A stretch of 64,000 bases of DNA from an uncultured Eubacteriales bacterium (GCA_964652895.1 CAZZCH010000003.1:6526-70525), one strand, 5' to 3'. Shown: positions 10,764 to 47,172, numbered from the stretch's first letter. A program made the numbers and translations. Notes: generated by a model from the sequence alone, not told the origin.

Positions 10764-10764
10764 G

Positions 10765-29334: not shown

Positions 29335-29340
29335 GCGGGG

Positions 29341-29535
29341 CTAGGCCGCTTTGACCACTTTCCCCGAACGCAGGCATCTCGTGCAGACCCAGATCTGGCG
29401 AACGCCCCCCCGTGGGGTCTGGGCCTTGACGTGCTGAAGGTTGGGCTTCCATTTTTTCGGGGACGACTTGTGGGAATGGCTGACGTTATGCCCGAAAATC
29501 GGGCCTTTTTGGCAGATCTGGCAGGTTTTCGGCAT
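29341..29535 (-). CDS. rpmB: 50S ribosomal protein L28
   Basis: This is the C-terminal 64 aa of ORF 29341..29817, reading MPKTCQICQKGPIFGHNVSHSHKSSPKKWKPNLQ. Confidence 0.9.
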   Translation of the reverse strand: MPKTCQICQKGPIFGHNVSHSHKSSPKKWKPNLQHVKAQTPRGGVRQIWVCTRCLRSGKVVKAA

Positions 29536-29568
29536 GGTCGTATCTCTTTCGTTTCTAGATGAGACGAA

Positions 29569-29597
29569 TTTATACCATAAAAATCGGCCGGAGGCAA
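29569..29597 (-). promoter_or_regulatory. sigma-70-type promoter candidate for rpmB
   Basis: The minus strand reads TTGCCT, a 17-nt spacer, then TATAAA. Confidence 0.4.
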
Positions 29598-29662
29598 GTT
29601 GGCCAAATTTGTTTCCGCTTGACCGGCCGGCTTGAAAGGCGTAGCTTTCCTTCGAGGCCGGC

Positions 29663-30340: not shown

Positions 30341-30390
30341 ACCGGTCGGCCCGCTAAGAGCATAGAAAAGAACGGTTTTCCCCGTCCAGG

Positions 30391-30414
30391 GAGGCCTCGG
30401 CCGAGGCCTCTTTT
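30391..30414 (+). terminator. intrinsic terminator
   Basis: A perfect 20-nt palindrome GAGGCCTCGGCCGAGGCCTC is followed by TTTT. Confidence 0.6.
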
Positions 30415-30522
30415 CGGCTTCTTTTTAGGCCCGCCAAGGACCTGAGGAAGCCCCTTTTTGGCGCCGTAGACCAGGGACCTTCCGCTGGAGCTGCAAAATG
30501 CCATTTTCCCCTAAAAAATAGC

Positions 30523-30551
30523 TTGAATTGCCCTTCCCGTGGTGCTATGAT
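30523..30551 (+). promoter_or_regulatory. sigma-70-type promoter candidate for dnaA
   Basis: TTGAAT (30523-30528) is followed by a 17-nt spacer and TATGAT (30546-30551). Confidence 0.5.
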
Positions 30552-30591
30552 TCGCAGGCCTCACCCGGTCGGATCTTTTGCCAGGAGAGGA

Positions 30592-30623
30592 TTTTCCACA
30601 GATGTGGAAATATCTGTGGATAA
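30592..30623. promoter_or_regulatory. three DnaA boxes
   Basis: The boxes are TTTTCCACA (30592-30600), TGTGGAAAT (30603-30611, inverted) and TGTGGATAA (30615-30623). The last is a perfect reverse complement of TTATCCACA. All three lie between the promoter and the dnaA ATG. Confidence 0.75.
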
Positions 30624-30636
30624 ATTAGCAGTACCC

Positions 30637-31968
30637 ATGGAACCTAAAGAAAATCAAAACCTTTGGATTCAAATCCTCCGGGCCGTCGAAACCAAGGTTG
30701 ACCCCAACTCGTTCGAGACCTGGTTCGACCCGACGAGCTTCATCGGCCAGGAACAGGATTGCCTGTACATCAAGGTCCCGAATTCCTATTTCCGCGACTG
30801 GCTGTCCTTCCATTATTCGGCCATCATCAACGAATGTTCTCGGGACATCTTCGGCAAAACCTTTGACATCCGCTACATCCACGACGATACGCCGTCGTCG
30901 TTCATGAGGCGCTCACCGGACGACAGGAAGACCAAGCAGGGTCAGACCATCAATCCGAACCTCAATCCCAACTACACCTTCGAGAACTTCGTCGTCGGCA
31001 GTTGCAATCAGTTCGCCCACGCGGCGGCCGTGGCCGTGGCCAAGAACCCGGCCAAATCCTACAACCCTCTCTACATCTACGGCGGGGCGGGTCTCGGCAA
31101 GACGCATCTAATGAACGCCATCGGTCACTTCAGCATCCAGCAGAACGAGCGAAATAAGATCCTCTACGTCACCACCGAAAAATTCATGAACGACCTGATC
31201 AACCACCTCCAATACGGCAAGGTCCTCGAGTTCCGCGAGAAATACCGGAGCGTCGACGTTTTGTTGATCGACGACATCCACTACCTTGCCGGCCGAGAGC
31301 GGACGAAAGAGGAATTTTTCCACACCTTCAACCATTTATACGACAGCCAGAAACAGATCGTCATCTCGAGCGACTGCCCGCCCAAGGAGATCCCCCATCT
31401 CGAGGAACGTTTCCGATCCCGATTCGAATGGGGCCTCATCGCCGACCTCAAACCACCTGACATCGAGACCCGTATTGCTATTCTCAAGAAAAAAGCCGAG
31501 GCCGAAGCGGTCTCTCTTCCCGAGAGCGTCGGACTCTACATCGCCGACAAGGTCCAATCCAATATTAGGGAGCTTGAGGGTTATTTGAGACGCGTCATCG
31601 CTTTCGCCTCGCTCAAAGGCGAGAAAATCGATCTCGACCTGACCAAAGAAGCGCTCAAGGGTCTTCTTGACTCGTCGACGATGATCGTCACTGTGGAAAA
31701 GATCCAAAAACTCATCTGCCATAAGTTCAAAATCAAGCCTTCACAGCTCAAATCGAAGAATAATTCCCCCAAGATCGCCTTTCCCCGTCAGATCGCCATG
31801 TATCTAGCCAAGGAATTGACCCATTCGTCCCTTCCCGAAATCGGCAAGAAATTCGGTGGAAAACACCACACGACTGTCATCTACAGCATCCGCAAGATCG
31901 ACAAGCTCCGGACGGACGATCCCGAATTCAACAAAGAAATTAACAGTCTCTTGGCGTTCATCCAATGA
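30637..31968 (+). CDS. dnaA: chromosomal replication initiator DnaA
   Basis: The internal ATG gives MEPKENQNLWIQILRAVE. Walker A is GGAGLGKTHL, the sequence LLIDDIHYLAGRERTKEEFFHTFN is present, and domain IV reads KFGGKHHTTVIYSIRKI. Confidence 0.95.
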   Translation: MEPKENQNLWIQILRAVETKVDPNSFETWFDPTSFIGQEQDCLYIKVPNSYFRDWLSFHYSAIINECSRDIFGKTFDIRYIHDDTPSSFMRRSPDDRKTKQGQTINPNLNPNYTFENFVVGSCNQFAHAAAVAVAKNPAKSYNPLYIYGGAGLGKTHLMNAIGHFSIQQNERNKILYVTTEKFMNDLINHLQYGKVLEFREKYRSVDVLLIDDIHYLAGRERTKEEFFHTFNHLYDSQKQIVISSDCPPKEIPHLEERFRSRFEWGLIADLKPPDIETRIAILKKKAEAEAVSLPESVGLYIADKVQSNIRELEGYLRRVIAFASLKGEKIDLDLTKEALKGLLDSSTMIVTVEKIQKLICHKFKIKPSQLKSKNNSPKIAFPRQIAMYLAKELTHSSLPEIGKKFGGKHHTTVIYSIRKIDKLRTDDPEFNKEINSLLAFIQ

Positions 31969-32104
31969 GGATTATCAATATGTTCGACAGAATATGCACA
32001 TTTCCAGAGGACTTTATTATTTCTCTTCTTAATTTTATTTATCTTTATAAACTAAATAATAAGAATATAAAGAATATCAAGAATCCGGTTCAAAAGGTGA
32101 CAAA
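31969..32104. other. AT-rich dnaA-dnaN spacer, candidate DNA-unwinding element of oriC
   Basis: A hand count of 32011-32080 gives 9 G/C in 70 nt, in an otherwise GC-rich window. Two degenerate DnaA-box-like 9-mers (each 7 of 9) are TTATCAATA (31972-31980) and atatgcaca (31992-32000). Confidence 0.5.
32061..32086. repeat. 9-nt-period AT-rich tandem repeat
   Basis: The sequence is AAGAATAT-a-AAGAATAT-c-AAGAATcc. Confidence 0.7.
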
Positions 32105-33202
32105 ATGAAATTTTCAATCTCCAAAGAATCTTTTCTGGAAGAACTTCAACTCCTCCAGGGGATCGTAGAAAAACGGAACACCATGCCCATCCTGGCCAAC
32201 ATTCTAATGGACGTTTCGGCGTCGGACATCGAATTGACGGGGACGGACCTCGAGGTGGGATTGAGGACGCATATCGCGGCGGCTATCGATAAGGCCGGAG
32301 CGATCACGGTCAACGGCAAGAAGATCTTCGAGATCGTCAAATCCTTACCTGAGGGGCAGACCGTCCAGATTGAAAAAATCGACGATAATATCGAGATCAA
32401 GTCCGGCGACAGCGAGTTTAAGATCCTATGCCTGCCGAAAGAGGATTATCCCCAGGTCCCCGAGCCAAAGTTCGAGAAAGGCATTAAATTGGGGCTCAAG
32501 GACCTCAAGGATATGATCGACCGGGTTTATTACGCGATCACCCAGGAGCAGAGGTATTATCTCAACGGGGCTCAGCTTTCGCTAAAGAACCGGCAGATCG
32601 AACTTGTGAGCACGGACGGGCACCGCCTGTCGTACACGAAAAAGGCCGAGGACGGCCTGAAACTCGACCAGGACATCAGCGTAATAGTGGCCAAGAAGAC
32701 GCTCAACGAGATCAGGAAATTCGAGGATGAAACGGTCGAGTTCGACCTCGACGAGAACAATCTATTCTTCAAGGTTGGCCAGAGGATCCTCATATCCCGG
32801 ATCATCGACAGTAAGTTCCCCAATTTTCAGGCGGTCATCCCCAAGGACAACCCCGGCCGGCTGGCCGTTTCGCGCGAAGAGTTGGCCAATGCCATCCGCC
32901 GCGTGTCGCTCCTCTCGGCCGAGCGGTCGAAGGGGATCAAGTTCACGATCGAGAAGAACCGGATGCGGCTCTTTTCCTCCAATCCCGAGATCGGCGAGGC
33001 GCGCGACAGGCTGGCCGTCGAGTACAAGGGCCAGGACCTGGAGATCGGGTTCAACGCCCAGTATCTGCTCGACTTCCTCCTGGCGGTCGCGTCCGAGCGG
33101 GTCGTCTTCGAGATCAAGGACGAGAACAGCGCCGTCCTTATCAAGCCGGAGGCCGAGGAAGGCATCACCAATATCTACGTCCTGATGCCGATGAAGATCT
33201 GA
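32105..33202 (+). CDS. dnaN: DNA polymerase III beta sliding clamp
   Basis: The sequence is MKFSISKESFLEELQLLQGIVEKRNTMPILANILM...LTGTDLEVG, with three-domain length, ending YVLMPMKI. Confidence 0.95.
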   Translation: MKFSISKESFLEELQLLQGIVEKRNTMPILANILMDVSASDIELTGTDLEVGLRTHIAAAIDKAGAITVNGKKIFEIVKSLPEGQTVQIEKIDDNIEIKSGDSEFKILCLPKEDYPQVPEPKFEKGIKLGLKDLKDMIDRVYYAITQEQRYYLNGAQLSLKNRQIELVSTDGHRLSYTKKAEDGLKLDQDISVIVAKKTLNEIRKFEDETVEFDLDENNLFFKVGQRILISRIIDSKFPNFQAVIPKDNPGRLAVSREELANAIRRVSLLSAERSKGIKFTIEKNRMRLFSSNPEIGEARDRLAVEYKGQDLEIGFNAQYLLDFLLAVASERVVFEIKDENSAVLIKPEAEEGITNIYVLMPMKI

Positions 33203-33222: not shown

Positions 33223-33717
33223 CTACTCCTCTTCGAGGGCGCTCCGGAGGACGGAGACGACCTGCCGGACGGCCCGGCCGACAGCCGGAGAAACCGGCGC
33301 CCCTTCCTTGAACGAGGAGGGTTCTATCCCCAGGATCGAAACCCGGCAGCCCATCGTTTCCCGAATATAGCGGGCGAGACGCGTCAGGGGCACGCGGTGG
33401 GTGGAAACGTCCTCGTCTGCGACCTCGGCAGGGTCGATGAGAAAGACCTCGCCGGGCGGCCGCCCGGCCGCGGCGGAATCGACGATGACCGAGAGGTCGG
33501 GGGCAAAAGCCCGGACGACCCCGGTGAAATTCTCGGGGACATCCCCGGCGTCGACGACCAACGCTCTCTGCGGAAGGCGGGGGCGCCCTCTCAGGAGGTC
33601 ACGGGCGACGTGCGCGCCTGCGGCGTCGTCACCCCGGGCCACGTTCCCCACGCCAATAACGGCCACGCGGGCGGACAGGCGAATCTCCTTCCGGAGAACT
33701 TGCTCCCAGGATTCCAT
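33223..33717 (-). CDS. hydrogenase maturation endopeptidase (HycI/HyaD family)
   Basis: The motif VIGVGNVARGDDAAG is present in a 164-aa product. It is the last gene of the hydrogenase operon. Confidence 0.8.
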   Translation of the reverse strand: MESWEQVLRKEIRLSARVAVIGVGNVARGDDAAGAHVARDLLRGRPRLPQRALVVDAGDVPENFTGVVRAFAPDLSVIVDSAAAGRPPGEVFLIDPAEVADEDVSTHRVPLTRLARYIRETMGCRVSILGIEPSSFKEGAPVSPAVGRAVRQVVSVLRSALEEE

Positions 33718-33790
33718 GGCTTGATCCTATGAATTCCCGGACCCGGCCGCAGCGAGCGGGGGGATGTCCGCAGGCGGCCGGCCCGAGAGC

Positions 33791-34216
33791 TCAAACTTTC
33801 GGTTCGGCGGCCTGGGGCGCCGGCGCCGCCGCTTTGGGTTTGAGCACGGCCCGGACGTAGACCCAGTCCTTTTTCAGCTTGTGGCGGTCGTCGGTCGCGA
33901 TCTCATAGAGGCTGTCGATCTGCATGGCCTTGGGGGTCGTCGGACAGGAGTCGACGCACTGAGCGCAGTGGATACAGCGGTCGTTGTGGATGACCATGCG
34001 GAAGCGTTTTTCGGCTTCGTTGACCGAGGTGATCTCGATGGCCTCGGCCGGGCAGTCCCGCTCGCAGGCCCGGCAGACGATACACATGTCGGGGTTGAGA
34101 TAAGGCGTTCCCCTGAAATTCTTTGGGACCTGGAGCTTCTTGAACGGGTAGTCGACCGTGTTCGGTTTCTTGAAGAGATGGCGTATAAGCTCGGGGAGGA
34201 AAACCGCTATTTTCAT
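33791..34216 (-). CDS. hydrogenase 2x[4Fe-4S] ferredoxin subunit (NuoI/HycF/MbhN-like)
   Basis: The two cluster motifs are CIVCRACERDCP and CIHCAQCVDSCP. Confidence 0.85.
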   Translation of the reverse strand: MKIAVFLPELIRHLFKKPNTVDYPFKKLQVPKNFRGTPYLNPDMCIVCRACERDCPAEAIEITSVNEAEKRFRMVIHNDRCIHCAQCVDSCPTTPKAMQIDSLYEIATDDRHKLKKDWVYVRAVLKPKAAAPAPQAAEPKV

Positions 34217-35184
34217 GACAGCAATCCCTTCAGGAGGATGGTGACGAGGAGCTGGATGACGGCCAGCGGAGCCAGATACTTCCAGGCGAAGGACACGACC
34301 TGATCGACGCGTATCCGCGAGGTCACGGCCCGGAGAAGGGACAGGAGGAAGATGACGAAGAGTGTCTTGACGACGAAATGGAGGAACCCGATGACGGCCC
34401 CGCCGGGGAAGCCGCCCAGGAAGACGGTCGCGAGCAGGCCGCTCGAGACGACCATCTCGATGTCAAACGTCAGCCGGAAAAGGGCCAGCTTCTTGCCGGA
34501 GTATTCGGTGAAAGTGCCGCCCACGATTTCCGTCTCGGCGTGGGGAATGTCAAAGGGCGTCCGCTCGAGCTTGGCCTGGACGGCGATGACGGCGACGAGG
34601 AAGCCCAGCAGGTTGGTCAAGAGGAGAAGGGGCTTCTGCTGGTAGAAGGCCGCGATCTCGGCCAGGCGCCAGGAGCCGGCCATGATGGCCGGGCCGAGGA
34701 CGGCCAGGAAAAGCGGGACCTCGTAGCCGAAGAGCATGGTCAGGACGCGGGCGCCGCCGATCGTGGAGAAGGGGTTTGTCGAGGCCCAGGCGGCCAGGAA
34801 GAGAATGAGCGTCGGCAGGCTGAGAAGGTAGAGGATGACGATGATGTCCCCCGAGAACGACGTAAAGCTCGGGGCGGCCAGGTCGAAATTCCAGACGGGA
34901 AGCAGCAGCCCCGCCGTCGCGACGACCGCCAGGCCGATGCCCGGCAGGACGTTGAAGAGGCGCTTGTCCGCGGCGTCGGGGACGATGTCCTCCTTGGCCA
35001 GGAGCTTGACGAAGTCGGCGATGGGCTGGAGGAGCCCGAACCGGCCCGTATGGGTCGGCCCCATCCGGTTCTGGAGCCGGGCGTAGACCTTGCGGTCGAA
35101 CCACTCGCAGAAGGTCGAATAGAGGAACAGGAAAAGAAGACCGGGGTAGACGACGAGATAGAGAAGCGTTCTCAGAACGGCCAT
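34213..35184 (-). CDS. hydrogenase membrane subunit (NuoH/HycD/MbhM-like)
   Basis: The product is a 323-aa polytopic protein. It begins with the NuoH-like RKVYARLQNRMGPTHTGRFGLLQPIADFVKLLAKED. Confidence 0.85.
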   Translation of the reverse strand: MAVLRTLLYLVVYPGLLFLFLYSTFCEWFDRKVYARLQNRMGPTHTGRFGLLQPIADFVKLLAKEDIVPDAADKRLFNVLPGIGLAVVATAGLLLPVWNFDLAAPSFTSFSGDIIVILYLLSLPTLILFLAAWASTNPFSTIGGARVLTMLFGYEVPLFLAVLGPAIMAGSWRLAEIAAFYQQKPLLLLTNLLGFLVAVIAVQAKLERTPFDIPHAETEIVGGTFTEYSGKKLALFRLTFDIEMVVSSGLLATVFLGGFPGGAVIGFLHFVVKTLFVIFLLSLLRAVTSRIRVDQVVSFAWKYLAPLAVIQLLVTILLKGLLS

Positions 35185-36374
35185 ACCGCATTCCTTTTCA
35201 CGGGAGCATTTTGATGCCGGGCGATCGCCCGCCGGCGCAGATCGCTCATCCGGACGACCGACTCCTCACCGCTTGCGGCGCTGATCAGCGTCACGGTCCG
35301 TTCGGCGCAGCAGATGCAGGGGTCGATGGCGGCGAAGATGAGCGGGATGTCGGCGATGAAGCCCTTCCGCAGCATCTCCACCGTGGCCGGGTAGTTGCCC
35401 AGGGTCGGGGCGCGGACCTTGAGGCGCTCCGGCTTGTCCGTTCCGTTGGACTTGATATAGTGGATGTTCTCGCCGCGGGGCGCTTCGTAGCGGCTGACGA
35501 CCTCGCCGGGCTTGGCCTTGCGCGGGGCTTTGATGGCGATGTCCCCCGCCGGCAGGTTCTTCAGGATTTGCTCGCAGATCTTGTAGGATTCGAGGAGCTC
35601 CTTGATCCGGACGACGACGCGGCCGAGGACGTCGCAGGTGTCGGCCGTCGCGACTTCGAAATCGAGCTCGTCGTAGACGGCGTACGGATCCTCCTTGCGG
35701 ACGTCCCGGGCCCAGCCGGAGGCCCGTGCCGTCGGGCCGCAGGCGCAGAGGGCGATCGCTTTTTCCAAGGAGAGGAAGCCGACACCGGCGATCCGGGCGA
35801 CGAAACTCGGCTCGGTCGCGCCGATACGCAAATAATACTCGCTCCGTTTTCTCAGCGTGACGAGGCCTTCGAGGATCTTGGCCACTTGGCCGGCGTCGAG
35901 GTCGCGGCGGACGCCGCCGATCGTGTTGATGGCGTAGTGGACGCGGTTTCCGGAGATCATCTCCAAGAGGTCCATGACGATCTCTCGGTCGCGCCAGACG
36001 TACATGAAGAACGAATCGAAACCGGCCTCGTGGCCAGCGACGCCGAGCCAAAGCAGGTGACTGTGGACACGCTCGAGCTCGGCGACAAGGTAACGGATGG
36101 ACATGCCCCGCTTGGGCGGGGTGAGCTCCATGAGCTTCTCGACGCCCTGGGCGTAGCAGGTCGAGTGGGAATGGGAACAGATGCCGCAGATCCGCTCGGT
36201 GAGGTAGAGGTTCTGGATATAATTCTTCTCCTCCGCCACCTTTTCGACGCCGCGGTGGTTGTAGCCGAGGCGGATGTCGGCATCGGTGATGACCTCGCCG
36301 TCGACGGTCATGCGCAGGCTGATCGGTTCCTTGAGGGCGGGGTGTTGCGGACCGATGGGGATCTGAACGTTCAT
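35172..36374 (-). CDS. group 4 [NiFe]-hydrogenase large subunit (NuoD-like)
   Basis: The N-terminal Ni-binding pair is RICGICSHSH (C63, C66) and the C-terminal pair is DPCICCAER (C353, C356). A 41-aa extension follows. NuoD-like core blocks are GPQHPA and GYNHRGVEK. Confidence 0.9.
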   Translation of the reverse strand: MNVQIPIGPQHPALKEPISLRMTVDGEVITDADIRLGYNHRGVEKVAEEKNYIQNLYLTERICGICSHSHSTCYAQGVEKLMELTPPKRGMSIRYLVAELERVHSHLLWLGVAGHEAGFDSFFMYVWRDREIVMDLLEMISGNRVHYAINTIGGVRRDLDAGQVAKILEGLVTLRKRSEYYLRIGATEPSFVARIAGVGFLSLEKAIALCACGPTARASGWARDVRKEDPYAVYDELDFEVATADTCDVLGRVVVRIKELLESYKICEQILKNLPAGDIAIKAPRKAKPGEVVSRYEAPRGENIHYIKSNGTDKPERLKVRAPTLGNYPATVEMLRKGFIADIPLIFAAIDPCICCAERTVTLISAASGEESVVRMSDLRRRAIARHQNAPVKRNAVWPF

Positions 36375-36844
36375 GATTGGCCCCCGGGGATGACTTCCGT
36401 CGGTCTGACGTGTTTCCAGTCTTTGCGGAGCGGGTACTGGCCCTCGGGCCAGTCGTCCGAGAGCAGCAGCCGCCGCTTATCGGGGATATCGTCGACAATC
36501 AAGCCGAACATCTCCTGGATCTCCCGCTCATAGAGGATGGCGCCGGGGATGACGGAAGTGATGCTCGGGAGGTGCGGCTTGTCTTTCGGGATCTCGGTCC
36601 TGAGGTTGAGGTCGGCTTCGGGGATCGAAAAATGATAGAGGATCTCGAATGTCTCGCCCTTGTCCACCCCGCTGATCGTGGAGAGGTGGGTCATGCCCAG
36701 GTTATCCCGCAGAAGGGCCGTCGCTTGGACCAGGTCAGGAGGCAGGATCTTCAGGTAGAACCGGCGGGGCGCCGGGTTGGCGATCTCGGCGACCTTTCCG
36801 CGGAGCTCGCGTTGGATCTGTTCGATGATGTTGGCGTCGCTCAT
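36371..36844 (-). CDS. hydrogenase subunit, NuoC/MbhK-like
   Basis: This is the C-terminal 157 aa of ORF 36371..37054, containing GMTHLSTISGVD...FEILYHF...PGAILYEREIQEMFGL. Confidence 0.8.
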   Translation of the reverse strand: MSDANIIEQIQRELRGKVAEIANPAPRRFYLKILPPDLVQATALLRDNLGMTHLSTISGVDKGETFEILYHFSIPEADLNLRTEIPKDKPHLPSITSVIPGAILYEREIQEMFGLIVDDIPDKRRLLLSDDWPEGQYPLRKDWKHVRPTEVIPGGQS

Positions 36845-36860
36845 GGCGTTTCCTCGAAGC

Positions 36861-37280
36861 CTAGAGTTTTCCCAGGAGTTTGACGACGCCGTCGATGATG
36901 GCGTCGGGCCGGGCCGGGCAGCCCGGGACGTACATGTTGACCGGAATGACCTGGTCGATGCCTCCCAAAATGTTGTATGAGCCGCGGTAGACGCAACCGG
37001 ACATGGCGCAGGCGCCCACGGCGATGACGAACTTGGGGTCGGGGGTCTGTTCATAGATGCGGATGAGCCTGTCCTTCATCTGGCGGGTGACCGGGCCGCT
37101 GGCGACGATGACGTCGGCATGGCGTGGAGTCGCCTTAAGCAGAATACCGAAGCGCTCGATGTCGAACCGCGGTGTAAGGGCGGCGACGATCTCGATGTCG
37201 CAGGCGTTGCAGGCGCCGGAATTGAGGTGGAGGATCCAGGGCGACTTGATCCTGGACCAGCGCGTGAGCTTGTCGAGCAT
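36861..37280 (-). CDS. hydrogenase small subunit (NuoB-like)
   Basis: The ligands for a single [4Fe-4S] cluster are SGACNACDIE, GACAMSGC and PGCPARP. Confidence 0.9.
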   Translation of the reverse strand: MLDKLTRWSRIKSPWILHLNSGACNACDIEIVAALTPRFDIERFGILLKATPRHADVIVASGPVTRQMKDRLIRIYEQTPDPKFVIAVGACAMSGCVYRGSYNILGGIDQVIPVNMYVPGCPARPDAIIDGVVKLLGKL

Positions 37281-37281
37281 G

Positions 37282-37614
37282 TTAACTCCTTGTGACCAGG
37301 GCCATGATGGACAGGAAGATCATAAGTAGGTAGAAGACGGCGAAAAAGACGATCTTGCCCGAGGGCACGGTGGCGATGACCAGGACGGCCACATGCATCA
37401 TCGTGAAGAACAGGGCGATGAAGAAGAACAGTCGGTAGCCGAACTGGATCTTCACGCCCGGAATGTCCTCGCCGCAGGCGTAGGTCGTGAGCTTGCCGCC
37501 GACCTTAGTCAGCTTGGGCGCCATTTTCGATCCCAGGCCGTAGAGGGCGAAGGCCGTCCCCAGAAAAAAGAGGAAGGCGATGGGCGGAGAGAGGAGAAAA
37601 CCGATACCGTTCAT
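37282..37614 (-). CDS. small 3-TM membrane subunit, NuoA-like
   Basis: There are three TM helices. The loop after TM1 carries TYACGEDIPG, comparable to the NuoA YECG motif, followed by FFFIALFF. Confidence 0.55.
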   Translation of the reverse strand: MNGIGFLLSPPIAFLFFLGTAFALYGLGSKMAPKLTKVGGKLTTYACGEDIPGVKIQFGYRLFFFIALFFTMMHVAVLVIATVPSGKIVFFAVFYLLMIFLSIMALVTRS

Positions 37615-37617
37615 GGC

Positions 37618-37926
37618 TTACCCTTTCAGCTTGGCCAAGTTGCGGATGTCCAGGCTCTTCGTCTGCCGGTAGATGTTGATGATCAGGGCCAGGGCCGTGG
37701 CCACGAGGCTGACCTCGACGACGATGAACGTGATGACGAGGGTCTGGGCGACGAGGATGTTGTCCTTGGCGAATCCCGTCCCCAGCAGGAGAAGGCTGAT
37801 GCCCTTGGCGATGACTTCGATGGCGATGAAGAGCTTGATGAGGTTCCGCCGGAGAAGGAGGCCGAGGATCCCGGCGAAGACGAGGGCGGCCGCGAAAAAC
37901 AGGTAGAAGAACCAATTGTTAGTCAT
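37618..37926 (-). CDS. membrane subunit NuoK/MnhC/MbhG-like
   Basis: The 102-aa product has 3 TM helices, with RRNLIKLFIAIEVIAKGISLLLL and an embedded Glu (VVEVS). Confidence 0.75.
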   Translation of the reverse strand: MTNNWFFYLFFAAALVFAGILGLLLRRNLIKLFIAIEVIAKGISLLLLGTGFAKDNILVAQTLVITFIVVEVSLVATALALIINIYRQTKSLDIRNLAKLKG

Positions 37927-38401
37927 GTTTGTCCCCCTTGCGGAACAGGGCCAGGACGGCGAACACGCCGGCCAGGATGACGGCGATCTGTCCGACGAGG
38001 TCGAACGTCCTCCCCTTCCAGAGAACGTCGCCGAAGGTGCCGGTCTCCGGTCCCGAGGCGAGGGCCGGGATCTTCTGGAGGAGGCCCTTCATGACCAGGG
38101 CGTCGATGATGATGAAGGCGATGAAGAAGAGGGGGAAGACCCAGTTCACGGCCCGGGATTCCCGGACCTCGTCGCCGGCCTTGGTCAGGGCGATGGTCAG
38201 GATGAAGAGGACCGTGATCAACCCGGCGACGACGGAGATCTCGAAGACGCCGGCGTACGAGGCGTTCATCCGGAAGAAGATGATGCCCAGGAACAGGCTG
38301 GCGACGGCGAGCGAGATGGCCGACTTGAGCAGGTCGCGGAGCAGGATGGCCAGGACCGAGAATAGGACCAAACCGATGAGAAGAGCTGTTTGCACGATCA
38401 T
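37919..38401 (-). CDS. membrane subunit, NuoJ-like N-terminal half fused to MnhB-like C-terminal half (MbhD/E type)
   Basis: The N-terminal half is LRDLLKSAISLAVASLFLGIIFF...YAGVFEISVVAGLITVLFI (NuoJ/DUF4040 pattern). The C-terminal half is GRTFDLVGQIAVILAGVFAV (MnhB pattern). Confidence 0.6.
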   Translation of the reverse strand: MIVQTALLIGLVLFSVLAILLRDLLKSAISLAVASLFLGIIFFRMNASYAGVFEISVVAGLITVLFILTIALTKAGDEVRESRAVNWVFPLFFIAFIIIDALVMKGLLQKIPALASGPETGTFGDVLWKGRTFDLVGQIAVILAGVFAVLALFRKGDKHD

Positions 38402-38404
38402 CGT

Positions 38405-39886
38405 CTAAAATCCCCACGATCCGATCGCGGCGTGGATCCCGTCCGCGAGCACGTCGGCGGCGGGCTGGATCCAGGTCGTGATGGTCGACGAGAAGAAGAT
38501 GCCGATCCCCACGCAGAGGAGAGCCAGGAAGACGGTCGCGGCCGTCATCCAGAAGGGCGCTTCCTTGACGGCGGCCCACTTCTCGTTGAGCTTGCCGAAG
38601 AAGGCCTTCCGCTGCATGAGGAGGTAGTACCAGAGGGTCAGGACCGAGGCCAGAACGGCGATCACGGCGAAGACGGGGTGCCCGGCCTGGACGAGCGCAA
38701 TAATGATGATCAGCTTCGACCAGAAGCCGTTGAGCGGCGGGACGCCGGAGATTGACAAGGCCCCGATGAGGTTCGTCGCGGCCGTGACCGGCATGCGCTT
38801 GGCCAGGCCGCCCATCTCGTCGAGGTTCCGGGTGCCCGTGGCCTGCTGGACGGAGCCGCTGGTCAAGAACAGAAGCCCCTTGGCCAGGGCGTGGTTGAAG
38901 AGATGGAAGAGCCCGCCGGCGATGCCGAGGGGCGTCCCGATGCCGATGCCCAGGACGACGTAGCCGACCTGGCTGATCGAGGAATAGGCCAGCATCCTCT
39001 TGATGTCCTTCTGGCCCAGGGCCAGGAAGGCGGCGACGACCAGGGACAATGTGCCCATGGACATCAGGACCGTGGATAGGGCCGGCGTCAGGCCGAAGAC
39101 GTTGAGGAAGATCCGGGTCATGGCGTAGACGCCGGAGACCTTGATCAGGAGGCCGGACAGGACGGCCGAGATGGGCGCCGGGGCCGAAGGGTGGGCGTCC
39201 GGAAGCCAGGCGTGGAACGGGATGAGGGCCGCCTTCAGACCGAAGCCCATGAGGAAGAAGGCGGAGGCGACGCCGACCACGGCGCCGGCGTTGAGCTCCT
39301 GGAGGGCCTTGGCCACCGCCGCGAAGCCCAGGCTCCCGGTCATCCCGAAGATGACGGCGATGCTGGCCAGGATGAAGGCCGTGGCCATGACGGAGAGCAT
39401 GAGGTATTTGAAGGCGGCTTCGAGCTCGTCCGGCCCCAGCCCGAAGGCGACGAGGGCGTAGGACGCGATGGCCGCTACCTCCATGAAGAGGTAGACGCTG
39501 AAAAGGTCAGTGGCCAGGACGAGCCCGTTCATCCCGGCGACCATGACCAGGAACAGGGCGTAGTAATTGGCCTTGGCCCCGTAGTGCTCCATGTAGTCGA
39601 TGGAGAACAGGCAGGCCGCCAACCCGACGAGGGCGATGGCCAGGAGCATTAACAGGCTGAATCCGTCCAGGGCCAGCCGGATGGCGACCGGCTCTCCGAA
39701 CCAGGAAAGATGTTGGAGGACGGGACCGGCGGCGATGAAGTGGCGTCCGGCGACCGCGGCGTAGACGAGCAGGAAGAGAAGGGTCGCGTTGGCCATCAGG
39801 TCCGGCACGACCCGCCGGGAGACCTTGCCGACGAGAGGGAGAATACCCGCTATGACGAGCGGCAGCGCAACGAAAAGTATGATCAA
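38405..39886 (-). CDS. antiporter-like subunit (NuoM/N, MrpD family)
   Basis: The product is a 493-aa polytopic protein with the proton-conducting membrane transporter core (KAALIPFHAWLPDAHPSAPAPISAVLSG...MLAYSSISQVGYV). Confidence 0.85.
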   Translation of the reverse strand: MIILFVALPLVIAGILPLVGKVSRRVVPDLMANATLLFLLVYAAVAGRHFIAAGPVLQHLSWFGEPVAIRLALDGFSLLMLLAIALVGLAACLFSIDYMEHYGAKANYYALFLVMVAGMNGLVLATDLFSVYLFMEVAAIASYALVAFGLGPDELEAAFKYLMLSVMATAFILASIAVIFGMTGSLGFAAVAKALQELNAGAVVGVASAFFLMGFGLKAALIPFHAWLPDAHPSAPAPISAVLSGLLIKVSGVYAMTRIFLNVFGLTPALSTVLMSMGTLSLVVAAFLALGQKDIKRMLAYSSISQVGYVVLGIGIGTPLGIAGGLFHLFNHALAKGLLFLTSGSVQQATGTRNLDEMGGLAKRMPVTAATNLIGALSISGVPPLNGFWSKLIIIIALVQAGHPVFAVIAVLASVLTLWYYLLMQRKAFFGKLNEKWAAVKEAPFWMTAATVFLALLCVGIGIFFSSTITTWIQPAADVLADGIHAAIGSWGF

Positions 39887-39896
39887 CGCTCCTCCT

Positions 39897-41777
39897 CTAT
39901 TTCATCAGCAGGCTGATCGCGCCCGCCACGATGATCAGGCCGGCCAGGCACCATGCGAGGTAGTTCGCGTAATGCCCGTTGTGGGCCTTTTTCAGAATGG
40001 CCGTGAATTTCTCCCCGGCCACGGTGACGACCTTTTCATAGACGAAATCGATGGGCCGGTCGATGGCCTTGAACAGGAAGAGCGACAGCCCGTGGAGGAC
40101 CTTGACGCCCTGCTCGTAGGGGTCGAACACCCGGGCCTCGGCCAGATCGTAGAGCTTGTGGACGACGGGCAGATTGTGGATGGGCTCGGAGGCCAGGTAG
40201 GGCTTGCGGCCGGTCTTCAGGAAGCCGTGACGGTGGAGGAGAAAGGCCAGGACAAGACAGCCGATCGAGATGAGAGCCACCGGATTGAAGATGTCCAGGG
40301 CGTGGCTCGTGAAGTTGATATGGGCGCCCGCTTCCACGTGACCTTCGAGGATCGGCTGGATGAAGAGGGTCAGGGGGAGCTTGTTGTAGACGCCGAAGAG
40401 GATGCAGAGGGCCGCCAGGACGAGGATGGGGACGACGATGGCCGGTTGGCTTTCCTTGACCGCCGGGACCTCGCGCGTCCGTTCGCCGAAGAACACGGAA
40501 TGCCCGGCCTTGAGGAAGGAGGCGAAGGTGAAGATCGCCCCGACCCAGGCGGCGATGGCGAAGATCGTGTAGCCCGATTCGAGGGCCCCGTGGAAGACCA
40601 TCTCTTTGGAAACGAACCCGTTGAGCGGCCAGACCCCGGAAATGGCCAGGGCGCAGACGGTGAAGCCGAAGGCCGTCAGCGGCATCTCTTTCCGCAGGCC
40701 GCCGAGCTTCTTGAGCTCGGTCGTGCCGGTCCGGTGTTCGACCGACCCGGCGCTCAGGAAGAGGCCGCTCTTATACATGGCGTGGTTGATCATGTGGAAG
40801 AGCCCGCCGGCGATGCCGATCGGGATGGCCGTCCCGATACCGAGGATCATGTAGCCGACCTGGCTGACCGCGTGATAGGACAGGAGCCGCTTGAAGTCCT
40901 TCTGGACGAGGGCCATGAGGACGGCCAGGACAATGGTCACCGCCCCGACGATCATGAGCAGGACGGAGAGGCCGCTCCCCGGCCGGATCTTGAAGAAATC
41001 TAGGGAGATCCGGGCCAGGAGATAGATGCCCAGCAGTTTCTCGAAGGCGGCCGGCAGGAAGGCCATGAAGGTCACCGGCGCGTCGACGGCGGCGTCGGGG
41101 ATCCAGGTGTGGAAAGGCATGGCCCCGGCCTTGCCGGCGGCTCCGATCATCATCATGATGAAGGCGACCGCGGCCAGCCCCGTCGGTTCGACGGAGATCT
41201 GGGACATGGTCAGCGTGCCGCTCACGGTCCACAGGAGCCCGATCCCCAGGATCATCGAGAAGTCGCAGAAAGCGCCGATCATGAGGGCCTTGACCGCGGT
41301 CCGGCCCGACGTCGGCCGGCCGCCGATCGTGATGAGGCCGTAGAGGGTGACGAGCAGGCCCTCCCAGAAGAAGACGAGGGGGACTAAGTTGTTGGCCAGC
41401 ACCGCCCCGTTGGCGAAGGCCGCGGTCAGGAAGACGTAGGCGAAGAATTCCCGGGCCCTCGGCGCGTCCTTGATCTTGACCGTCGAATAAAGCGTGATCA
41501 GGATGAGGAACCCGGCCAGGGCGAGCAGGATGAAGCTCGAGAAATGGTAGAGACGGAGGTCGAAGTCGATGCCCATGCCGAGCCAAGGGACGTTGAACCG
41601 AAGGTCCTTCAGGGCGAAGAAGACGAAGCCGTAGTAGAGAAGGACGGCCGCGCCGGCCAGGGCCAGGGCGTCCCGGACGAGGCGGAGCGTCCGCGGGATG
41701 ACGAGGAGGACGACGGCCAGGACGGCGGGCAGGAGGATGGGGAGAAGAAGCATTTTGGGGGTCATCGGAGCCACCAA
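39897..41777 (-). CDS. antiporter-like subunit, NuoL/MrpA type with C-terminal lateral-helix-like extension
   Basis: The 626-aa product has the core KAGAMPFHTWIPDAAVDAPVTFMAFL...LLSYHAVSQVGYM. A C-terminal amphipathic stretch (DPYEQGVKVLHGLSLFLFKAIDRPIDFVYEKVVTVAGEKFTAILKK) is followed by a final TM helix. Confidence 0.8.
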   Translation of the reverse strand: MVAPMTPKMLLLPILLPAVLAVVLLVIPRTLRLVRDALALAGAAVLLYYGFVFFALKDLRFNVPWLGMGIDFDLRLYHFSSFILLALAGFLILITLYSTVKIKDAPRAREFFAYVFLTAAFANGAVLANNLVPLVFFWEGLLVTLYGLITIGGRPTSGRTAVKALMIGAFCDFSMILGIGLLWTVSGTLTMSQISVEPTGLAAVAFIMMMIGAAGKAGAMPFHTWIPDAAVDAPVTFMAFLPAAFEKLLGIYLLARISLDFFKIRPGSGLSVLLMIVGAVTIVLAVLMALVQKDFKRLLSYHAVSQVGYMILGIGTAIPIGIAGGLFHMINHAMYKSGLFLSAGSVEHRTGTTELKKLGGLRKEMPLTAFGFTVCALAISGVWPLNGFVSKEMVFHGALESGYTIFAIAAWVGAIFTFASFLKAGHSVFFGERTREVPAVKESQPAIVVPILVLAALCILFGVYNKLPLTLFIQPILEGHVEAGAHINFTSHALDIFNPVALISIGCLVLAFLLHRHGFLKTGRKPYLASEPIHNLPVVHKLYDLAEARVFDPYEQGVKVLHGLSLFLFKAIDRPIDFVYEKVVTVAGEKFTAILKKAHNGHYANYLAWCLAGLIIVAGAISLLMK

Positions 41778-43192
41778 CTCATCTCGGTCGTCGCGATGTT
41801 GACGAGCTTCATCGGGTAGGCGACGAGCAGGCCGGCCGCCAGGCCGAGGACGGCCAGGAGGGCGACGACGAAGACCATGGATTTCGTTTTCTCGGGGGCT
41901 GGATGCTTGAGCTCACCCAGGAAAACCAGGCTGAATACTCTGAACAGGTAGTACATCGTCAGGACGGCCGTAAAGAGGGCCAAGGCGGCGAGCCAGGTCT
42001 GGCCGGCCTGCACGGTCCCTATGATGACCAGGAATTTCGAGAAGAAGCCGCCGAAGGGCGGGATGCCGATGACCGAAAAAGCGCAGGCGAGGAAGGCGAC
42101 GGCCGTGACCGGCATGGTCTTGATCAGCCCGCCCATTTCCCGGATGTCCTTGGTGTGGACGGCGTGGATGACGATCCCGGCGCAGAGGAAGAGCCCCGCC
42201 TTGGCCAGCCCGTGCATCAGGATGAAGAGAAGCGACCCGGAGATGCCCGCGGCGTTCATCATGCTGAAGCCGAGGAAGATGTAGCCGATTTGGCTGATCG
42301 TCGAGTAGGCCAGGATTCTTTTAATGTCGTTCTCCACGGCGGCCGCGCCCGCCGCGACGAGGCTGGAGACCATGACGATGATGGGGATGGCCTGCTGCCA
42401 ACCCTCGGGCAGCCGGAAGGTATAGAGGAAGAGGCGGGCGAACGCGTAGACGCCGATCTTGACCAGGACGGCCGCGTGGAGCAGGGCCGTGACGGTCGTC
42501 GGCGCGATGCCGGCGTCCGGCAGCCAGGTGTGGAGCGGGATCGTGGCCGATTTCGAGAACATGCCAAAGAGGATGAACAGAACCGCCGTCCCCGGGACGA
42601 GCGTGCCGCGCATGACCGTGATGTCGAAGGTGTTGGTGAGGCCGTAGATCTGGATGAAGCCGAGGAGCATGACCACGGCGCCGAAGAACGTCACCAGGAA
42701 GGCCTTGTCGGCCTTGCGGACGTGGGCCGGCTCCCGGTAGAAACCGATGAGGCGCCAGCAGCTGATGCCGATGATCTCCCAGAAGAGGTAGAGGAAAATG
42801 AGGTTCCCGGAGAAGACCAGGCCCATCATCGCCCCGATGAAGAGCAAGACCATCAGGTAGTACTCGTTCTGATTCTCTTCCTTATGGATGTAGCCGACGG
42901 AGTAGACAACGATGAGAAAGCCGACGAACGACGACACCCCGGCCATGAAGATCGACAGCGGGTCGATGATCAGGACGAAGTCGAGGCCCAGTGCCAGGCT
43001 CTTGCGCACGACGAGCTCCCCCCCTTGGAGAGCGAGGGGGATCAGGGTCAGCGGCAGGACTGCCGTTACGGCGCTCACCAGGATGGACCAGATCGACCGG
43101 GCACGCCTGGACAACAGACCGGCCAGGGGGGCCGCGAACGAGCCGATGATGGGGACGAGGATCGTTAGGAGGACGATTGTTTCGGCATTCAT
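41762..43192 (-). CDS. antiporter-like subunit (NuoM/N, MrpD family)
   Basis: The 476-aa product has the core KSATIPLHTWLPDAGIAPTTVTALLHA...ILAYSTISQIGYI. It is the first gene of the operon. Confidence 0.85.
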   Translation of the reverse strand: MNAETIVLLTILVPIIGSFAAPLAGLLSRRARSIWSILVSAVTAVLPLTLIPLALQGGELVVRKSLALGLDFVLIIDPLSIFMAGVSSFVGFLIVVYSVGYIHKEENQNEYYLMVLLFIGAMMGLVFSGNLIFLYLFWEIIGISCWRLIGFYREPAHVRKADKAFLVTFFGAVVMLLGFIQIYGLTNTFDITVMRGTLVPGTAVLFILFGMFSKSATIPLHTWLPDAGIAPTTVTALLHAAVLVKIGVYAFARLFLYTFRLPEGWQQAIPIIVMVSSLVAAGAAAVENDIKRILAYSTISQIGYIFLGFSMMNAAGISGSLLFILMHGLAKAGLFLCAGIVIHAVHTKDIREMGGLIKTMPVTAVAFLACAFSVIGIPPFGGFFSKFLVIIGTVQAGQTWLAALALFTAVLTMYYLFRVFSLVFLGELKHPAPEKTKSMVFVVALLAVLGLAAGLLVAYPMKLVNIATTEMSWWLR

Positions 43193-43225: not shown

Positions 43226-43254
43226 AGTATAATTATCGATTTTGGGGTTGTCAA
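43226..43254 (-). promoter_or_regulatory. sigma-70-type promoter candidate for the hydrogenase operon
   Basis: The minus strand reads TTGACA (43254-43249), a 17-nt spacer, then TATACT (43231-43226), about 34 nt upstream of the ATG at 43192. Confidence 0.55.
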
Positions 43255-43385
43255 GAATTTCCACATTCCATCCTCACTTTTATTAACAGATTTTCCAGGG
43301 GGCTTCAAACCGGGGCTTGGAATGGGTTGATTTTTCCCCTGGAATGTAGGATAAAAGGACGAATCCGCCGAGGAGAGTGAACAAC

Positions 43386-44510
43386 ATGCCCATCGAGATC
43401 CGCGAGGTCCTTTCCCGCAAGGACTTGAAGACATTCATCTACCTGCCCGAGAAGATCCACGCCGGGCACGAGAACTGGGTCCACCCCATCTACATGGACG
43501 ACTGGAAGTACTTCGACAAGAAGAAGAACAAAGCCTTCGGCTACTGCGACACGATCCTCCTCCTGGCCTGGAAGGACGGACGGCCCGTGGGCCGGGCCAT
43601 GGGCATCATCAACCACCGCTTCAACGAACACCGGAACGAAAAGACGGCCCGCTTCGGGTACCTGGACACCTACGAAGACAAGGAGGCGCTCCACGCCATC
43701 CTCGGTTTCATCGAGGACTGGGCCCGGGCCAAGGGCATGACCAAGATCGTCGGTCCCTACGGCTTCTCCGACCAGGACCCCGAAGGCTTCCTCATCGAGG
43801 GTTTCGAACACCGGGCGACCATCGCCACATACTACAATTTCGAATGGATGCCGCGGTTGCTCGAGGAGGGAGGCTACGCCAAGGATAACGACTGGTTCGT
43901 CTACAAGCTCGAAGTTCCCAAGGAGCTGCCGGAATTCTATAAAAAGATCTACGAGCGGGCCATGAAGCGCGGCACTTACGAGATCGTCGAGTTCCGCAAG
44001 AGGAAGGAGCTCAAGCCCTGGATCCGTCCCATCCTGTCGCTCATGAACGAGTGCTATATGGCGGGCAACATCTACGGCTTCGCCCCCCTCGGCGAGGAGG
44101 AGATGGACGACCTGGCCAAGCGCTACCTTCCCGTCGTCGACCCACGTTTTGTCAAGGCTATCAAGAAGGACGGGGACGTCGTGGCCTTCATCATCGCCAT
44201 GCCCGACATGACCGAGGGCATCGTCAAGGCCAAGGGCCGCCTTCTTCCCTTCGGGTTCATCCCTGTCCTTCGGGCGGCCAAGAAGACCAAGCAGCTCGAC
44301 CTCCTGCTCGGGGCCGTCAAAGAGCAGTACCGGGGCCAGGGCCTCGACGTCCTCATGGGCGTCAAGACCCTCATGTCCGCCCACGAGGCCGGCTACGAAA
44401 TGATGGACACCCACCACGAAATGGAAGCCAACGTCAAGGTCCGGGCCGAGATGGAGCGCATGGGCGGGACCATCTACAAGAAATACCGGGCCTTTTATAA
44501 GATGATCTAG
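43386..44510 (+). CDS. GNAT-like acyltransferase family protein (function uncertain)
   Basis: ATG at 43386 has GAGGAG 10 nt upstream, whereas the GTG at 43377 is only 2 nt after the GAGGAG, too close for an RBS. The C-terminal half has a GNAT-like pattern (VAFIIAMPD...QYRGQGLDVLM). The long ORF on the opposite strand is considered an artefact. Confidence 0.5.
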   Translation: MPIEIREVLSRKDLKTFIYLPEKIHAGHENWVHPIYMDDWKYFDKKKNKAFGYCDTILLLAWKDGRPVGRAMGIINHRFNEHRNEKTARFGYLDTYEDKEALHAILGFIEDWARAKGMTKIVGPYGFSDQDPEGFLIEGFEHRATIATYYNFEWMPRLLEEGGYAKDNDWFVYKLEVPKELPEFYKKIYERAMKRGTYEIVEFRKRKELKPWIRPILSLMNECYMAGNIYGFAPLGEEEMDDLAKRYLPVVDPRFVKAIKKDGDVVAFIIAMPDMTEGIVKAKGRLLPFGFIPVLRAAKKTKQLDLLLGAVKEQYRGQGLDVLMGVKTLMSAHEAGYEMMDTHHEMEANVKVRAEMERMGGTIYKKYRAFYKMI

Positions 44511-45820: not shown

Positions 45821-45866
45821 GGCCCACCCCCGGTTCCCGCGGCCTTCCGGCGGAGGCGGCGTTCGC

Positions 45867-47129: not shown

Positions 47130-47172
47130 CCGACGCTCTCCGAACCGCGATCCCGTACCGGACTTATGGGCC

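Follow-up and report, generated by a model that had tools for sequence, protein, structure and literature searches.

The 64,000-nucleotide stretch of DNA analysed here, from an uncultured Eubacteriales bacterium (GCA_964652895.1 CAZZCH010000003.1:6526-70525; hereafter the window), carries on its minus strand, between positions 33223 and 43192, a twelve-gene operon that appears to encode a functional, membrane-bound and ion-translocating group 4 [NiFe]-hydrogenase, probably one that evolves H2 at the expense of reduced ferredoxin. We give this reading a probability of about 0.7, a figure that also covers the placing of the operon in the family called Group 4g by HydDB-based studies, its membership there being by association only. 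We infer the ferredoxin donor, the direction of the reaction and the identity of the ion, which gene content by itself does not show. Eleven of the products, 3,123 residues in all, are homologues of the core subunits of complex I and the twelfth is a maturation protease, an inventory that a preliminary description of the sequence had proposed and that Pfam and NCBIfam models bear out, helped by a 23-sequence profile for the NuoA-like subunit. The subunits are referred to below by the letters of their complex I counterparts (A, B, C, D, H, I, J and K) and, for the three antiporter-like proteins, as Ant1, Ant2L (the NuoL-type protein) and Ant3.

The catalytic site is intact. Motifs L1 (RICGICSHSH) and L2 (DPCICCAER) of the large subunit hold all four Ni-binding cysteines, as had been claimed, the conserved Glu16 is present, and a C-terminal extension of 41 residues follows the Arg of L2. 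The four ligand cysteines are invariant in a 14-sequence alignment of large subunits and are also present in the related loci examined. Among solved structures the large subunit matches MbhL (273 bits) and HycE (272 bits) above Nqo4 (206 bits). The motif L2 reads DPCICCAER in all 14 of the Aminicenantes large subunits, giving a CxCC with an extra cysteine, and DPCFSCTDR in the other members of the twelve-gene family; a comparable CYCC motif has been described as peculiar to the Hun complex of Atribacteria (10.1101/536078).

The partners of the large subunit share its hydrogenase character. The small subunit B has a hydrogenase-type CxxC (C24 and C27), together with C91/C96 and C121, where complex I has CC, and its best solved matches are MbhJ (170 bits), NdhK (132 bits) and HycG (128 bits). 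Subunit C scores higher against the N-terminal part of HycE (65 bits) than against NuoCD (43 bits), and for subunit I, too, the Hyc and Hyf scores exceed those of Nuo; the eight cysteines of I form two CxxCxxCxxxCP motifs, and this subunit is the probable docking site for ferredoxin and point of electron entry. The protease passes the TIGR00072 model with 94.7 bits (cut-off 47.45) and matches TIGR00142 (hycI) with E = 6e-28 and E. coli HycI with 57 bits. So far as sequence can tell, therefore, the enzyme is a competent hydrogenase.

Automated annotation would suggest otherwise. NCBIfam gives Nuo-like names to most of the subunits, B passes the NCBIfam NuoB cut-offs, and public entries often name the large subunit 'NADH-quinone oxidoreductase subunit D', all of which would suit an eleven-subunit complex I, or a complex of the Ehr/Mbx type, that reduces quinone, sulfur or another acceptor rather than protons. 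The invariant NiFe cysteines, the dedicated HycI protease within the operon and the CxxC of the small subunit effectively refute such a non-hydrogenase at the level of sequence, the large subunit scores below the cut-offs of the NCBIfam NuoD and FpoD models, and we regard this explanation as scarcely credible.

All twelve open reading frames (ORFs) are present and tightly packed, with spacings in the order of transcription of -4, 10, 3, -8, 3, 1, 16, -4, -13, -4 and 73 nt; the preliminary description, which had given overlaps or gaps of at most 16 nt and a single gap of 73 nt, was accurate in this. Four public contigs that encode an identical large subunit yield the same genes with independent gene callers. 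Rather than at TTG 41777, the Ant2L gene most likely starts at ATG 41765, giving 622 residues, the start used by gene callers and seen in 120 homologues, and gene callers likewise agree on the internal ATG 36844 as the start of the C gene. The content of G and C at third codon positions lies between 0.80 and 0.92 in all twelve genes, which, like the conservation of the operon described below, speaks for selection on them.

A gap of 184 bp, which holds a sigma-70-type promoter, separates the operon from a divergent gene upstream, and the last gene of the operon abuts the convergent dnaN downstream. The promoter region contains two promoter-like sites where 1.7 are expected by chance, so that the argument is one of the promoter's position and not of its rarity. 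With a divergent gene and promoter at one end and convergent dnaN at the other, the transcript comprises exactly these twelve genes and leaves no room for MrpE, MrpF or MrpG partners; none was found when canonical ones were looked for in the transcript, all twelve genes being assigned, and none is encoded elsewhere in the window. The features are listed in Table 1.

Table 1. Features of the hydrogenase operon, in the order of transcription; positions are counted from the first nucleotide of the window (TM, transmembrane helix; FHL, formate hydrogenlyase)
Feature	Position	Strand	Evidence or remark
Sigma-70-type promoter TTGACA-17 nt-TATACT	43226..43254	-	11/12 consensus matches, ~35 nt upstream of first gene
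Antiporter-like subunit 1 (Ant1), 476 aa	41762..43192	-	Pfam PF00361 9e-72 + PF00662
Antiporter-like subunit 2 (Ant2L), NuoL type, 622 aa from ATG	39897..41765	-	NCBIfam NuoL model
Antiporter-like subunit 3 (Ant3), MrpD/NuoM/HyfB-F-like, 493 aa	38405..39886	-	Pfam PF00361 6e-70
NuoJ-like subunit (J), 160 aa, 5 predicted TM	37919..38401	-	Pfam Oxidored_q3 4e-10 + MbhD
NuoK/MrpC/MbhG-like subunit (K), 102 aa	37618..37926	-	Pfam Oxidored_q2 1.5e-18
NuoA/ND3-like subunit (A), 110 aa, 3 TM	37282..37614	-	Family profile
NuoB-like small subunit (B), 139 aa, one [4Fe-4S]	36861..37280	-	Pfam Oxidored_q6 2e-31
NuoC-like subunit (C), 157 aa, separate from large subunit	36371..36844	-	Pfam Complex1_30kDa 2e-30
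[NiFe] large subunit (D), 400 aa	35172..36374	-	Pfam Complex1_49kDa + NiFeSe_Hases
NuoH-like membrane anchor (H), 323 aa	34213..35184	-	Pfam NADHdh 3e-88
NuoI-like 2x[4Fe-4S] subunit (I), 141 aa	33791..34216	-	Pfam Fer4 families; NCBIfam FHL Fe-S subunit, HyfH and NuoI models
HycI-type maturation endopeptidase, 164 aa	33223..33717	-	Pfam HycI 5e-14

The membrane arm has three antiporter-like subunits, each with a Proton_antipo_M domain (Pfam E values from 1e-58 to 1e-72) and each, as we read the sequences, retaining the TM5 Glu, TM7 Lys, TM8 Lys and TM12 Lys. Ant1 has a NuoL/HyfD-like core with a Proton_antipo_N domain and no C-terminal extension, and among the E. coli proteins it is most similar to HyfD (211 bits) and NuoL (194 bits); Ant3 is closest to HyfB and HyfF (175 bits each), ahead of NuoM (143 bits). 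In Ant2L, hydropathy and helical moment outline a core of 14 helices, TM15, an amphipathic lateral-helix region of ~90 residues, and TM16. The NCBIfam NuoL model runs through the protein from end to end, aligning residues 9–622 of the 626-residue ORF (counted from TTG 41777) with model positions 4–610 of 615, and the top match of an Ant2L family profile is E. coli NuoL (226 bits). The lateral helix and TM16 are not aligned when this profile is run against E. coli NuoL with hmmsearch, and are spanned by the NCBIfam model only.

Subunits H and A provide the clearest resemblance to complex I. The best solved matches of H are Nqo8 (173 bits), NdhA (155 bits) and E. coli NuoH (152 bits), compared with 94 bits for MbhM, 78 for MbsM, 70 for HycD and 71 for HyfC. 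In neighbour-joining distances H lies 1.12 from Nqo8, close to the 0.86–1.08 that separate the complex I NuoH proteins among themselves, with HyfC and HycD at 2.0; the complex I NuoH proteins group with the H subunits of relatives of the Bathyarchaeia type with 51% bootstrap support. The A subunit is faint as a single sequence (Pfam E = 0.006; E ~0.1 in a PDB search). A profile built from 23 sequences from related loci, however, matches NuoA, ND3 and Nqo7 over all three TM helices, the E values for over 20 solved structures of complex I lying between 1e-6 and 1e-3, whereas P. furiosus MbhI is matched weakly, over one helix, with E = 0.09. The loop motif YACGED of this subunit is conserved in the family as Y-x-C-G-E-D, and wherever the gene was detected in uncut related loci it stands immediately 5' of the B gene or heads an A-B-C-D run.

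Subunits J and K are more ambiguous. In phmmer searches J matches E. coli NuoJ and K matches NuoK, and neither matches HyfE; against solved structures, MbhD and MbhG score somewhat above NuoJ and NuoK. For J the matches are MbhD (35 bits), MbsD (33.5 bits) and E. coli NuoJ (27 bits over residues 16–111); its N-terminal 75 residues correspond to MbhD, and the whole is a fused five-TM protein like NuoJ. K matches MbhG with 53 bits and Nqo11 with 37.5 bits, and retains both membrane glutamates (in AIEVI and VVEVS). By similarity, then, the complex is a mosaic, in which B, C, D and I look like their Mbh and Hyc counterparts and H and A clearly like those of complex I.

Two orders of the membrane subunits come into consideration. 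In an arrangement of the Mbh/Mrp type, H and an MbhI-like A would dock on one of the antiporter-like proteins, and J and K would stand on the far side; the enzyme would then be a bacterial Mbh that has lost MbhA–C and MbhF and multiplied MbhH, and its complex-I-like inventory would be superficial. The solved matches of B, K and the N-terminal part of J named above speak for it, as does the tie between MbhL and HycE for the large subunit. The gene order, in which a membrane module and an A-like gene precede B-C-D-H-I, is that of Mbh and not of nuo. MbhL joins the twelve-gene family in the neighbour-joining tree of large subunits, with a support of only 16%, and such clusters have been labelled 'Mbh-Mrp type' (10.1101/765248). 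Set against these are the far closer relationship of H to NuoH than to MbhM, the match of A to three helices of NuoA, the fused J, the absence of MrpE/F/G genes from the transcript, and the ~90 residues between TM15 and TM16 of Ant2L, which give its lateral helix the length found in NuoL. The archaeal relatives, moreover, whose large subunits are 46–56% identical to that of the window, have their genes in the order nuoA-B-C/D-H-I-J-K-L-M-N. We consider the Mbh-like arrangement possible but doubtful. Because of the NuoH and NuoA similarity, the five-TM J, the NuoL-length lateral helix and the archaeal complex I gene order, a complex-I-like order of the membrane subunits seems somewhat likelier, at slightly better than even odds.

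A third possibility is that the operon encodes the hydrogenase of a hydrogen lyase that depends on formate or CO, the dehydrogenase being encoded elsewhere in the genome, as in groups 4a, 4b and 4c. The E. coli proteins most similar to the antiporter-like subunits are HyfD, HyfB and HyfF, and the group 4b clusters of HydDB also carry several antiporter subunits (PMC13582414). The operon, however, has no connector of the HycB, HyfA or CooF type, without which a dehydrogenase could not be wired to the NuoI-like subunit, nor any other extra electron-input subunit among its twelve genes; no FdhF or CooS is encoded in the window; and C and D are unfused, unlike those of Hyc and Hyf. No unexplained large gene occurs inside the 49 syntenic loci described below, in whose flanks FdhF and CooS were not searched for. 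On the missing connector, the absence of FdhF and CooS from the window and the unfused C and D, we rejected an FHL- or Coo-type enzyme, which we consider very unlikely.

For a ferredoxin-linked enzyme with a complex-I-like arm, the following mechanism may be proposed. Reduced ferredoxin from fermentation would dock on I, and its electrons would reach the NiFe site of the large subunit by way of the two [4Fe-4S] clusters of I and the single one of B, three clusters in all; there protons would be reduced to H2. The free energy would be transmitted through the loop region of H and A into a membrane arm of the complex I style, in which H, A, J and K would make up an E-channel, followed by the three antiporter-like pumps, clamped together by the NuoL-type lateral helix, and the arm would expel H+ (or Na+). 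During maturation, once Ni has been inserted, the HycI protease would cut the 41-residue tail from the large subunit.

Several points weigh against this picture of an H2-evolving pump. By textbook values, electron transfer from ferredoxin to protons yields ~7–40 kJ per H2, which pays for one or two ions only, and because of this the four putative channels (three pumps and the E-channel) look oversized for H2 evolution. The E-channel may itself work differently, because the 'FDxE' of NuoA TM2 is replaced by 'MHVA' in the bacterial family, with His and Ala in place of the acidic residues; the Asp is retained in the archaeal relatives. Among solved structures, Mbh supplies the closest matches of B, D, K and the N-terminal part of J, so that a topology like that of Mbh may yet apply. 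An AlphaFold2 model of Ant2L, built on a shallow alignment of 56 sequences at 81–95% identity, is of low confidence (predicted local distance difference test score 56, predicted template modelling score 0.60), and its top Foldseek matches, full-length NuoL, MrpA and NdhF, agree with a NuoL identity but do not decide about the lateral helix. No hyp maturation genes and no gene for pyruvate:ferredoxin oxidoreductase were found in the window, to which the search was confined, the rest of the genome lying outside it; a check for hyp genes and a ferredoxin-reducing partner, suggested by the preliminary description, thus came out negative over these 64 kb. Genes for formate dehydrogenase, carbon monoxide dehydrogenase (CODH) and NuoEFG are absent from the window as well, but this, like the lack of an extra electron-input subunit in the transcript, speaks for ferredoxin as the donor. 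All members of the family are biochemically uncharacterised.

The four apparently intact channels also keep open a role in reverse, with H2 uptake driven by the ion gradient, or an exchange of ions within the arm. In the reverse direction the same enzyme would use the gradient for H2-dependent reduction of ferredoxin, like Eha/Ehb and the Ech of methanogens and some acetogens, and a four-channel arm would supply several ions per electron pair for a reaction that is uphill at low H2. Textbook redox values favour this, in that a three-pump arm exceeds what ferredoxin-to-H2 energetics can drive; according to the HydDB table (PMC5037454), group 4 enzymes can run in either direction physiologically, and some Aminicenantes metagenome-assembled genomes (MAGs) have been described as putative acetogens (PMC6472368). 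Most carriers of the identical operon, however, are fermenters without an obvious need for it (Elusimicrobiota, Omnitrophota, Phycisphaerae and Bacillota; PMC8542988, PMC11257099), the window contains no Wood-Ljungdahl or CO2-fixation genes, and in the Hyf enzyme of E. coli an identical layout of three pumps goes with H2 evolution. We judge reverse operation unlikely, and H2 evolution remains the preferred direction.

Operons of this family are very widespread and already catalogued, the present one is typical of them, and the rarity implied by the preliminary description is not borne out. Scanning GTDB species, each represented by one genome, gave 80 loci, whose ORFs were searched with the twelve window proteins; the order Ant1-Ant2L-Ant3-J-K-A-B-C-D-H-I-protease occurs in 49 of them, distributed over more than 10 phyla, and most of the others are cut by contig ends. 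Loci with this order are found in Aminicenantes, UBP2, Phycisphaerae/Sedimentisphaerales, Bacillota, Elusimicrobiota/Endomicrobia (L061), Omnitrophota (L036, L040 and L065), Spirochaetota, Polyangiaceae, Acidobacteriota/Holophaga, Coriobacteriia and others, and a Margulisbacteria locus (L067) differs only in that its Ant1 and Ant2L are apparently fused. The source of the window is an Aminicenantes bacterium, a name borne by the MAGs in which hundreds of large-subunit homologues at 81–93% identity occur; outside Aminicenantes the nearest representatives of 50%-identity clusters are 45–53% identical, and the NiFe cysteines are present in all of the closest representatives that are full length.

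Two other layouts accompany this one. A two-pump variant, J-K-Ant-Ant-A-B-C-D-H-I-protease, is found in Anaerolineae, among them the cultured strains Longilinea arvoryzae KOME-1 and Leptolinea tardivitalis YMTK-2, and also in Methanoregula. In relatives from Bathyarchaeia the genes stand exactly as in complex I, A-B-C/D-H-I-J-K-L-M-N, and the NiFe site is intact. Three archaeal loci with the nuo order and intact NiFe cysteines (L009, at 7848-18896 of a Bathyarchaeota contig, L080 and L087) resemble an Fpo or a complex I to which a hydrogenase active site has been given; the cluster of L009 is followed by an FrhB/FpoF-like gene, and no HycI is encoded within 10 kb. In the locus of the closest lineage outside Aminicenantes (L005, 3446-5356; large subunit 53% identical), a two-pump operon is directly preceded by hypA, hypB and a truncated hypF-like gene. 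A Dehalococcoidales MAG (L027, 9048-12071) has a 60% identical large subunit encoded in a cluster B-C-D-I-HycI. Genes for NuoH-like or antiporter-like proteins are missing from its neighbourhood, which holds another hydrogenase-like pair and Fe-S proteins, and the cluster may derive from the family by loss of the membrane subunits.

We computed neighbour-joining trees of the large subunit, with bootstrap, from 117 representatives and from the 80 loci, adding MbhL, HycE and Nqo4 to each and HyfG to the second. Support for the deep nodes is 0–30%, and therefore no subgroup placement can be claimed for the large subunit. The preliminary description had seen in the operon an intermediate between energy-converting hydrogenases and complex I. 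As a description of the mosaic this stands, H and A being complex-I-like and B, C, D and I hydrogenase-like; as a statement about descent it is unproven, since large-subunit trees that lack deep support do not decide whether the family is basal or secondarily assembled. A bolder proposal, which we advance tentatively and think less probable than its converse, is that the bacterial twelve-gene family is the most complete living counterpart of the eleven-subunit NiFe ancestor postulated in 2011, with a true complex I topology. If so, the coupling machine of complex I, including NuoA and the three-pump arm, would have come together in what was still a ferredoxin:H+ hydrogenase, and from such an enzyme complex I would have arisen mainly through loss of the NiFe site. 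The proposal would also call for an account of how four ion channels are used by a reaction that releases no more than ~40 kJ per H2.

Should the membrane arm have the organisation of complex I, the family would offer a tractable, hydrogenase version of the complex I coupling machine, and the two-pump variants in the cultured Anaerolineae are relevant to that tractability. Two questions would then be accessible to direct test: whether the architecture of complex I was in place before the NiFe site was lost, and how a low-energy reaction drives, or is driven by, several ion channels. There is a practical consequence for annotation as well, as these operons are routinely mislabelled NADH-quinone oxidoreductase and are better read as ferredoxin-linked hydrogenases in the metabolism of Aminicenantes and many other anaerobes.

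The genes around the operon deserve brief description. Directly adjoining it, in the interval 29300-33202, are dnaA (30523-31968, plus strand) and dnaN (32105-33202, plus strand). This region is probably the replication origin, because the minimum of the cumulative GC skew and a low-GC stretch (0.54) coincide there; if the origin lies upstream of dnaA, the operon, which is transcribed towards dnaN, is head-on to replication. The adjacency of dnaN and dnaA to the operon is kept in 10-11 Aminicenantes loci. The gene divergent from the operon's promoter region (43377-44510, plus strand) encodes a protein of 377 residues without a Pfam or NCBIfam match, which occupies the same position in seven Aminicenantes loci. 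Beyond it, just upstream of the hydrogenase region (44579-47345, minus strand), an Nramp-type divalent metal transporter adjoins a protein with MgtE_N and CBS domains and no MgtE membrane domain; an Nramp homologue occurs in the flanks of one other locus only (L055). Farther away (56140-58633, minus strand), a NapH/NapG-like polyferredoxin of 537 residues with membrane Fer4_5 repeats overlaps the gene for an upstream DUF362 protein by ~20 nt, and could be an electron-transfer partner. A DUF362-Fer4 protein also stands upstream of the hyp genes in L005.

Comparison with characterised systems finds in the operon the components expected of a group 4 energy-converting [NiFe]-hydrogenase: the L1 and L2 motifs, the C-terminal extension and the HycI protease, the NuoB protein with one [4Fe-4S] cluster, the NuoI protein with two, the NuoH anchor and the antiporter-like subunits are all present. 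The claim that it lies outside the named layouts of this group holds up. The Mbh of P. furiosus (group 4d; PDB 6CFW) shares with it, on the present reading, a ferredoxin-type input without an extra input module, and the sequence of membrane module, small MbhI/A gene and B-C-D-H-I, but possesses MbhA, MbhB, MbhC and MbhF, an Na+ module resembling MrpE/F/G/B, and has the single antiporter-like subunit MbhH against three here. MbhI, MbhD and MbhG are structural counterparts of parts of NuoA, NuoJ and NuoK, and the peripheral arm of Mbh is on the opposite side of the membrane module compared with complex I (PMC8165549).

The group 4a enzymes of E. coli, Hyc (FHL-1, PDB 7Z0S) and Hyf (hydrogenase 4), share the HycI-type protease, the cleaved C-terminal tail and a similar large-subunit score, and Hyf also has three antiporter-like subunits, those most similar to Ant1 and Ant3. 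Their large subunit, however, is a NuoC-NuoD fusion (569 residues in HycE and 555 in HyfG) in place of the two separate genes seen here, they possess a HycB/HyfA connector and a formate dehydrogenase partner, neither of which is encoded in the operon or in the window, phmmer finds no NuoA or NuoJ homologue in E. coli Hyf, and HyfC and HycD reach only ~70 bits with H. Ech (group 4e) has six subunits, EchA–F, compared with eleven structural subunits here, and Coo (group 4c) has an adjacent CooS CODH and CooF, neither of which is encoded in the window.

With the eleven-subunit complex I, NDH-1 and Fpo the operon has an identical inventory of A, B, C, D, H, I, J and K and three antiporter-like subunits, one of L type, and with photosynthetic NDH-1 it shares the entry of ferredoxin at NuoI, which is probable here. 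In those enzymes, by contrast, NuoD lacks the NiFe ligands, NuoB has CC instead of CxxC, there is no protease, the genes follow the order nuoA–N and the product is quinol rather than H2. The compact complex I enzymes all lack the C-terminal Cys pair (Moparthi & Hagerhall 2011, PMC3144371), and Ehr, Mbx and Mbs complexes have lost the Ni-binding cysteines retained here.

Group 4g of HydDB, for which coupling to ferredoxin is predicted and which is uncharacterised (PMC5037454), is a loose, polyphyletic bin (PMC5037454 and, from 2026, PMC13582414) that also contains such different clusters as Ech2 of T. kivui and the Hun complex. Enzymes of Omnitrophota and Endomicrobium have been published under this name (PMC8542988, PMC11257099), and the twelve-gene order is seen in Omnitrophota and Endomicrobia loci, so that the two are linked by lineage rather than genome by genome; the Bathyarchaeota 4g enzyme of the HydDB paper is from the same phylum as relatives with large subunits 46–47% identical to that of the window. 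In Korarchaeia, 4g clusters are co-located with Nuo-like L and M subunits (PMC10667645), and Aminicenantes are described as fermenters with H2-evolving group 4 hydrogenases (PMC10766756). The Elusimicrobia enzymes labelled 'Mbh-Mrp type' (10.1101/765248) belong to the same discussion, and published accounts of that type make no mention of a NuoA homologue or a complex-I-like NuoH.

The idea of a bridge between hydrogenases and complex I had already been put forward for Asgard archaea. The 'Complex I-like' [NiFe] hydrogenases of Asgard groups 4j–4q are held to bridge Mbh and complex I, with a NuoBCDI arm lacking NuoEFG, an active NiFe NuoD, a shortened membrane arm and an architecture predicted by AF2-Multimer (Appler et al. 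2024, 10.1101/2024.07.04.601786); the bacterial operon is likened to them by concept only, and not by phylogeny. Its composition also matches the common ancestor postulated for these enzymes, of eleven subunits with a NiFe site on NuoD, which is a hypothesis on an extinct enzyme (Moparthi & Hagerhall 2011, PMC3144371). The same authors state that NuoA and NuoJ are absent from any hydrogenase, a statement that the twelve-gene family contradicts, and a 2026 COG study reports no NuoA relative outside complex I. What goes beyond the published statements we found is a bacterial family with the full inventory of eleven subunits and three pumps, together with an apparent NuoA homologue detectable from its sequence profile and a NuoH that scores as a complex I subunit.

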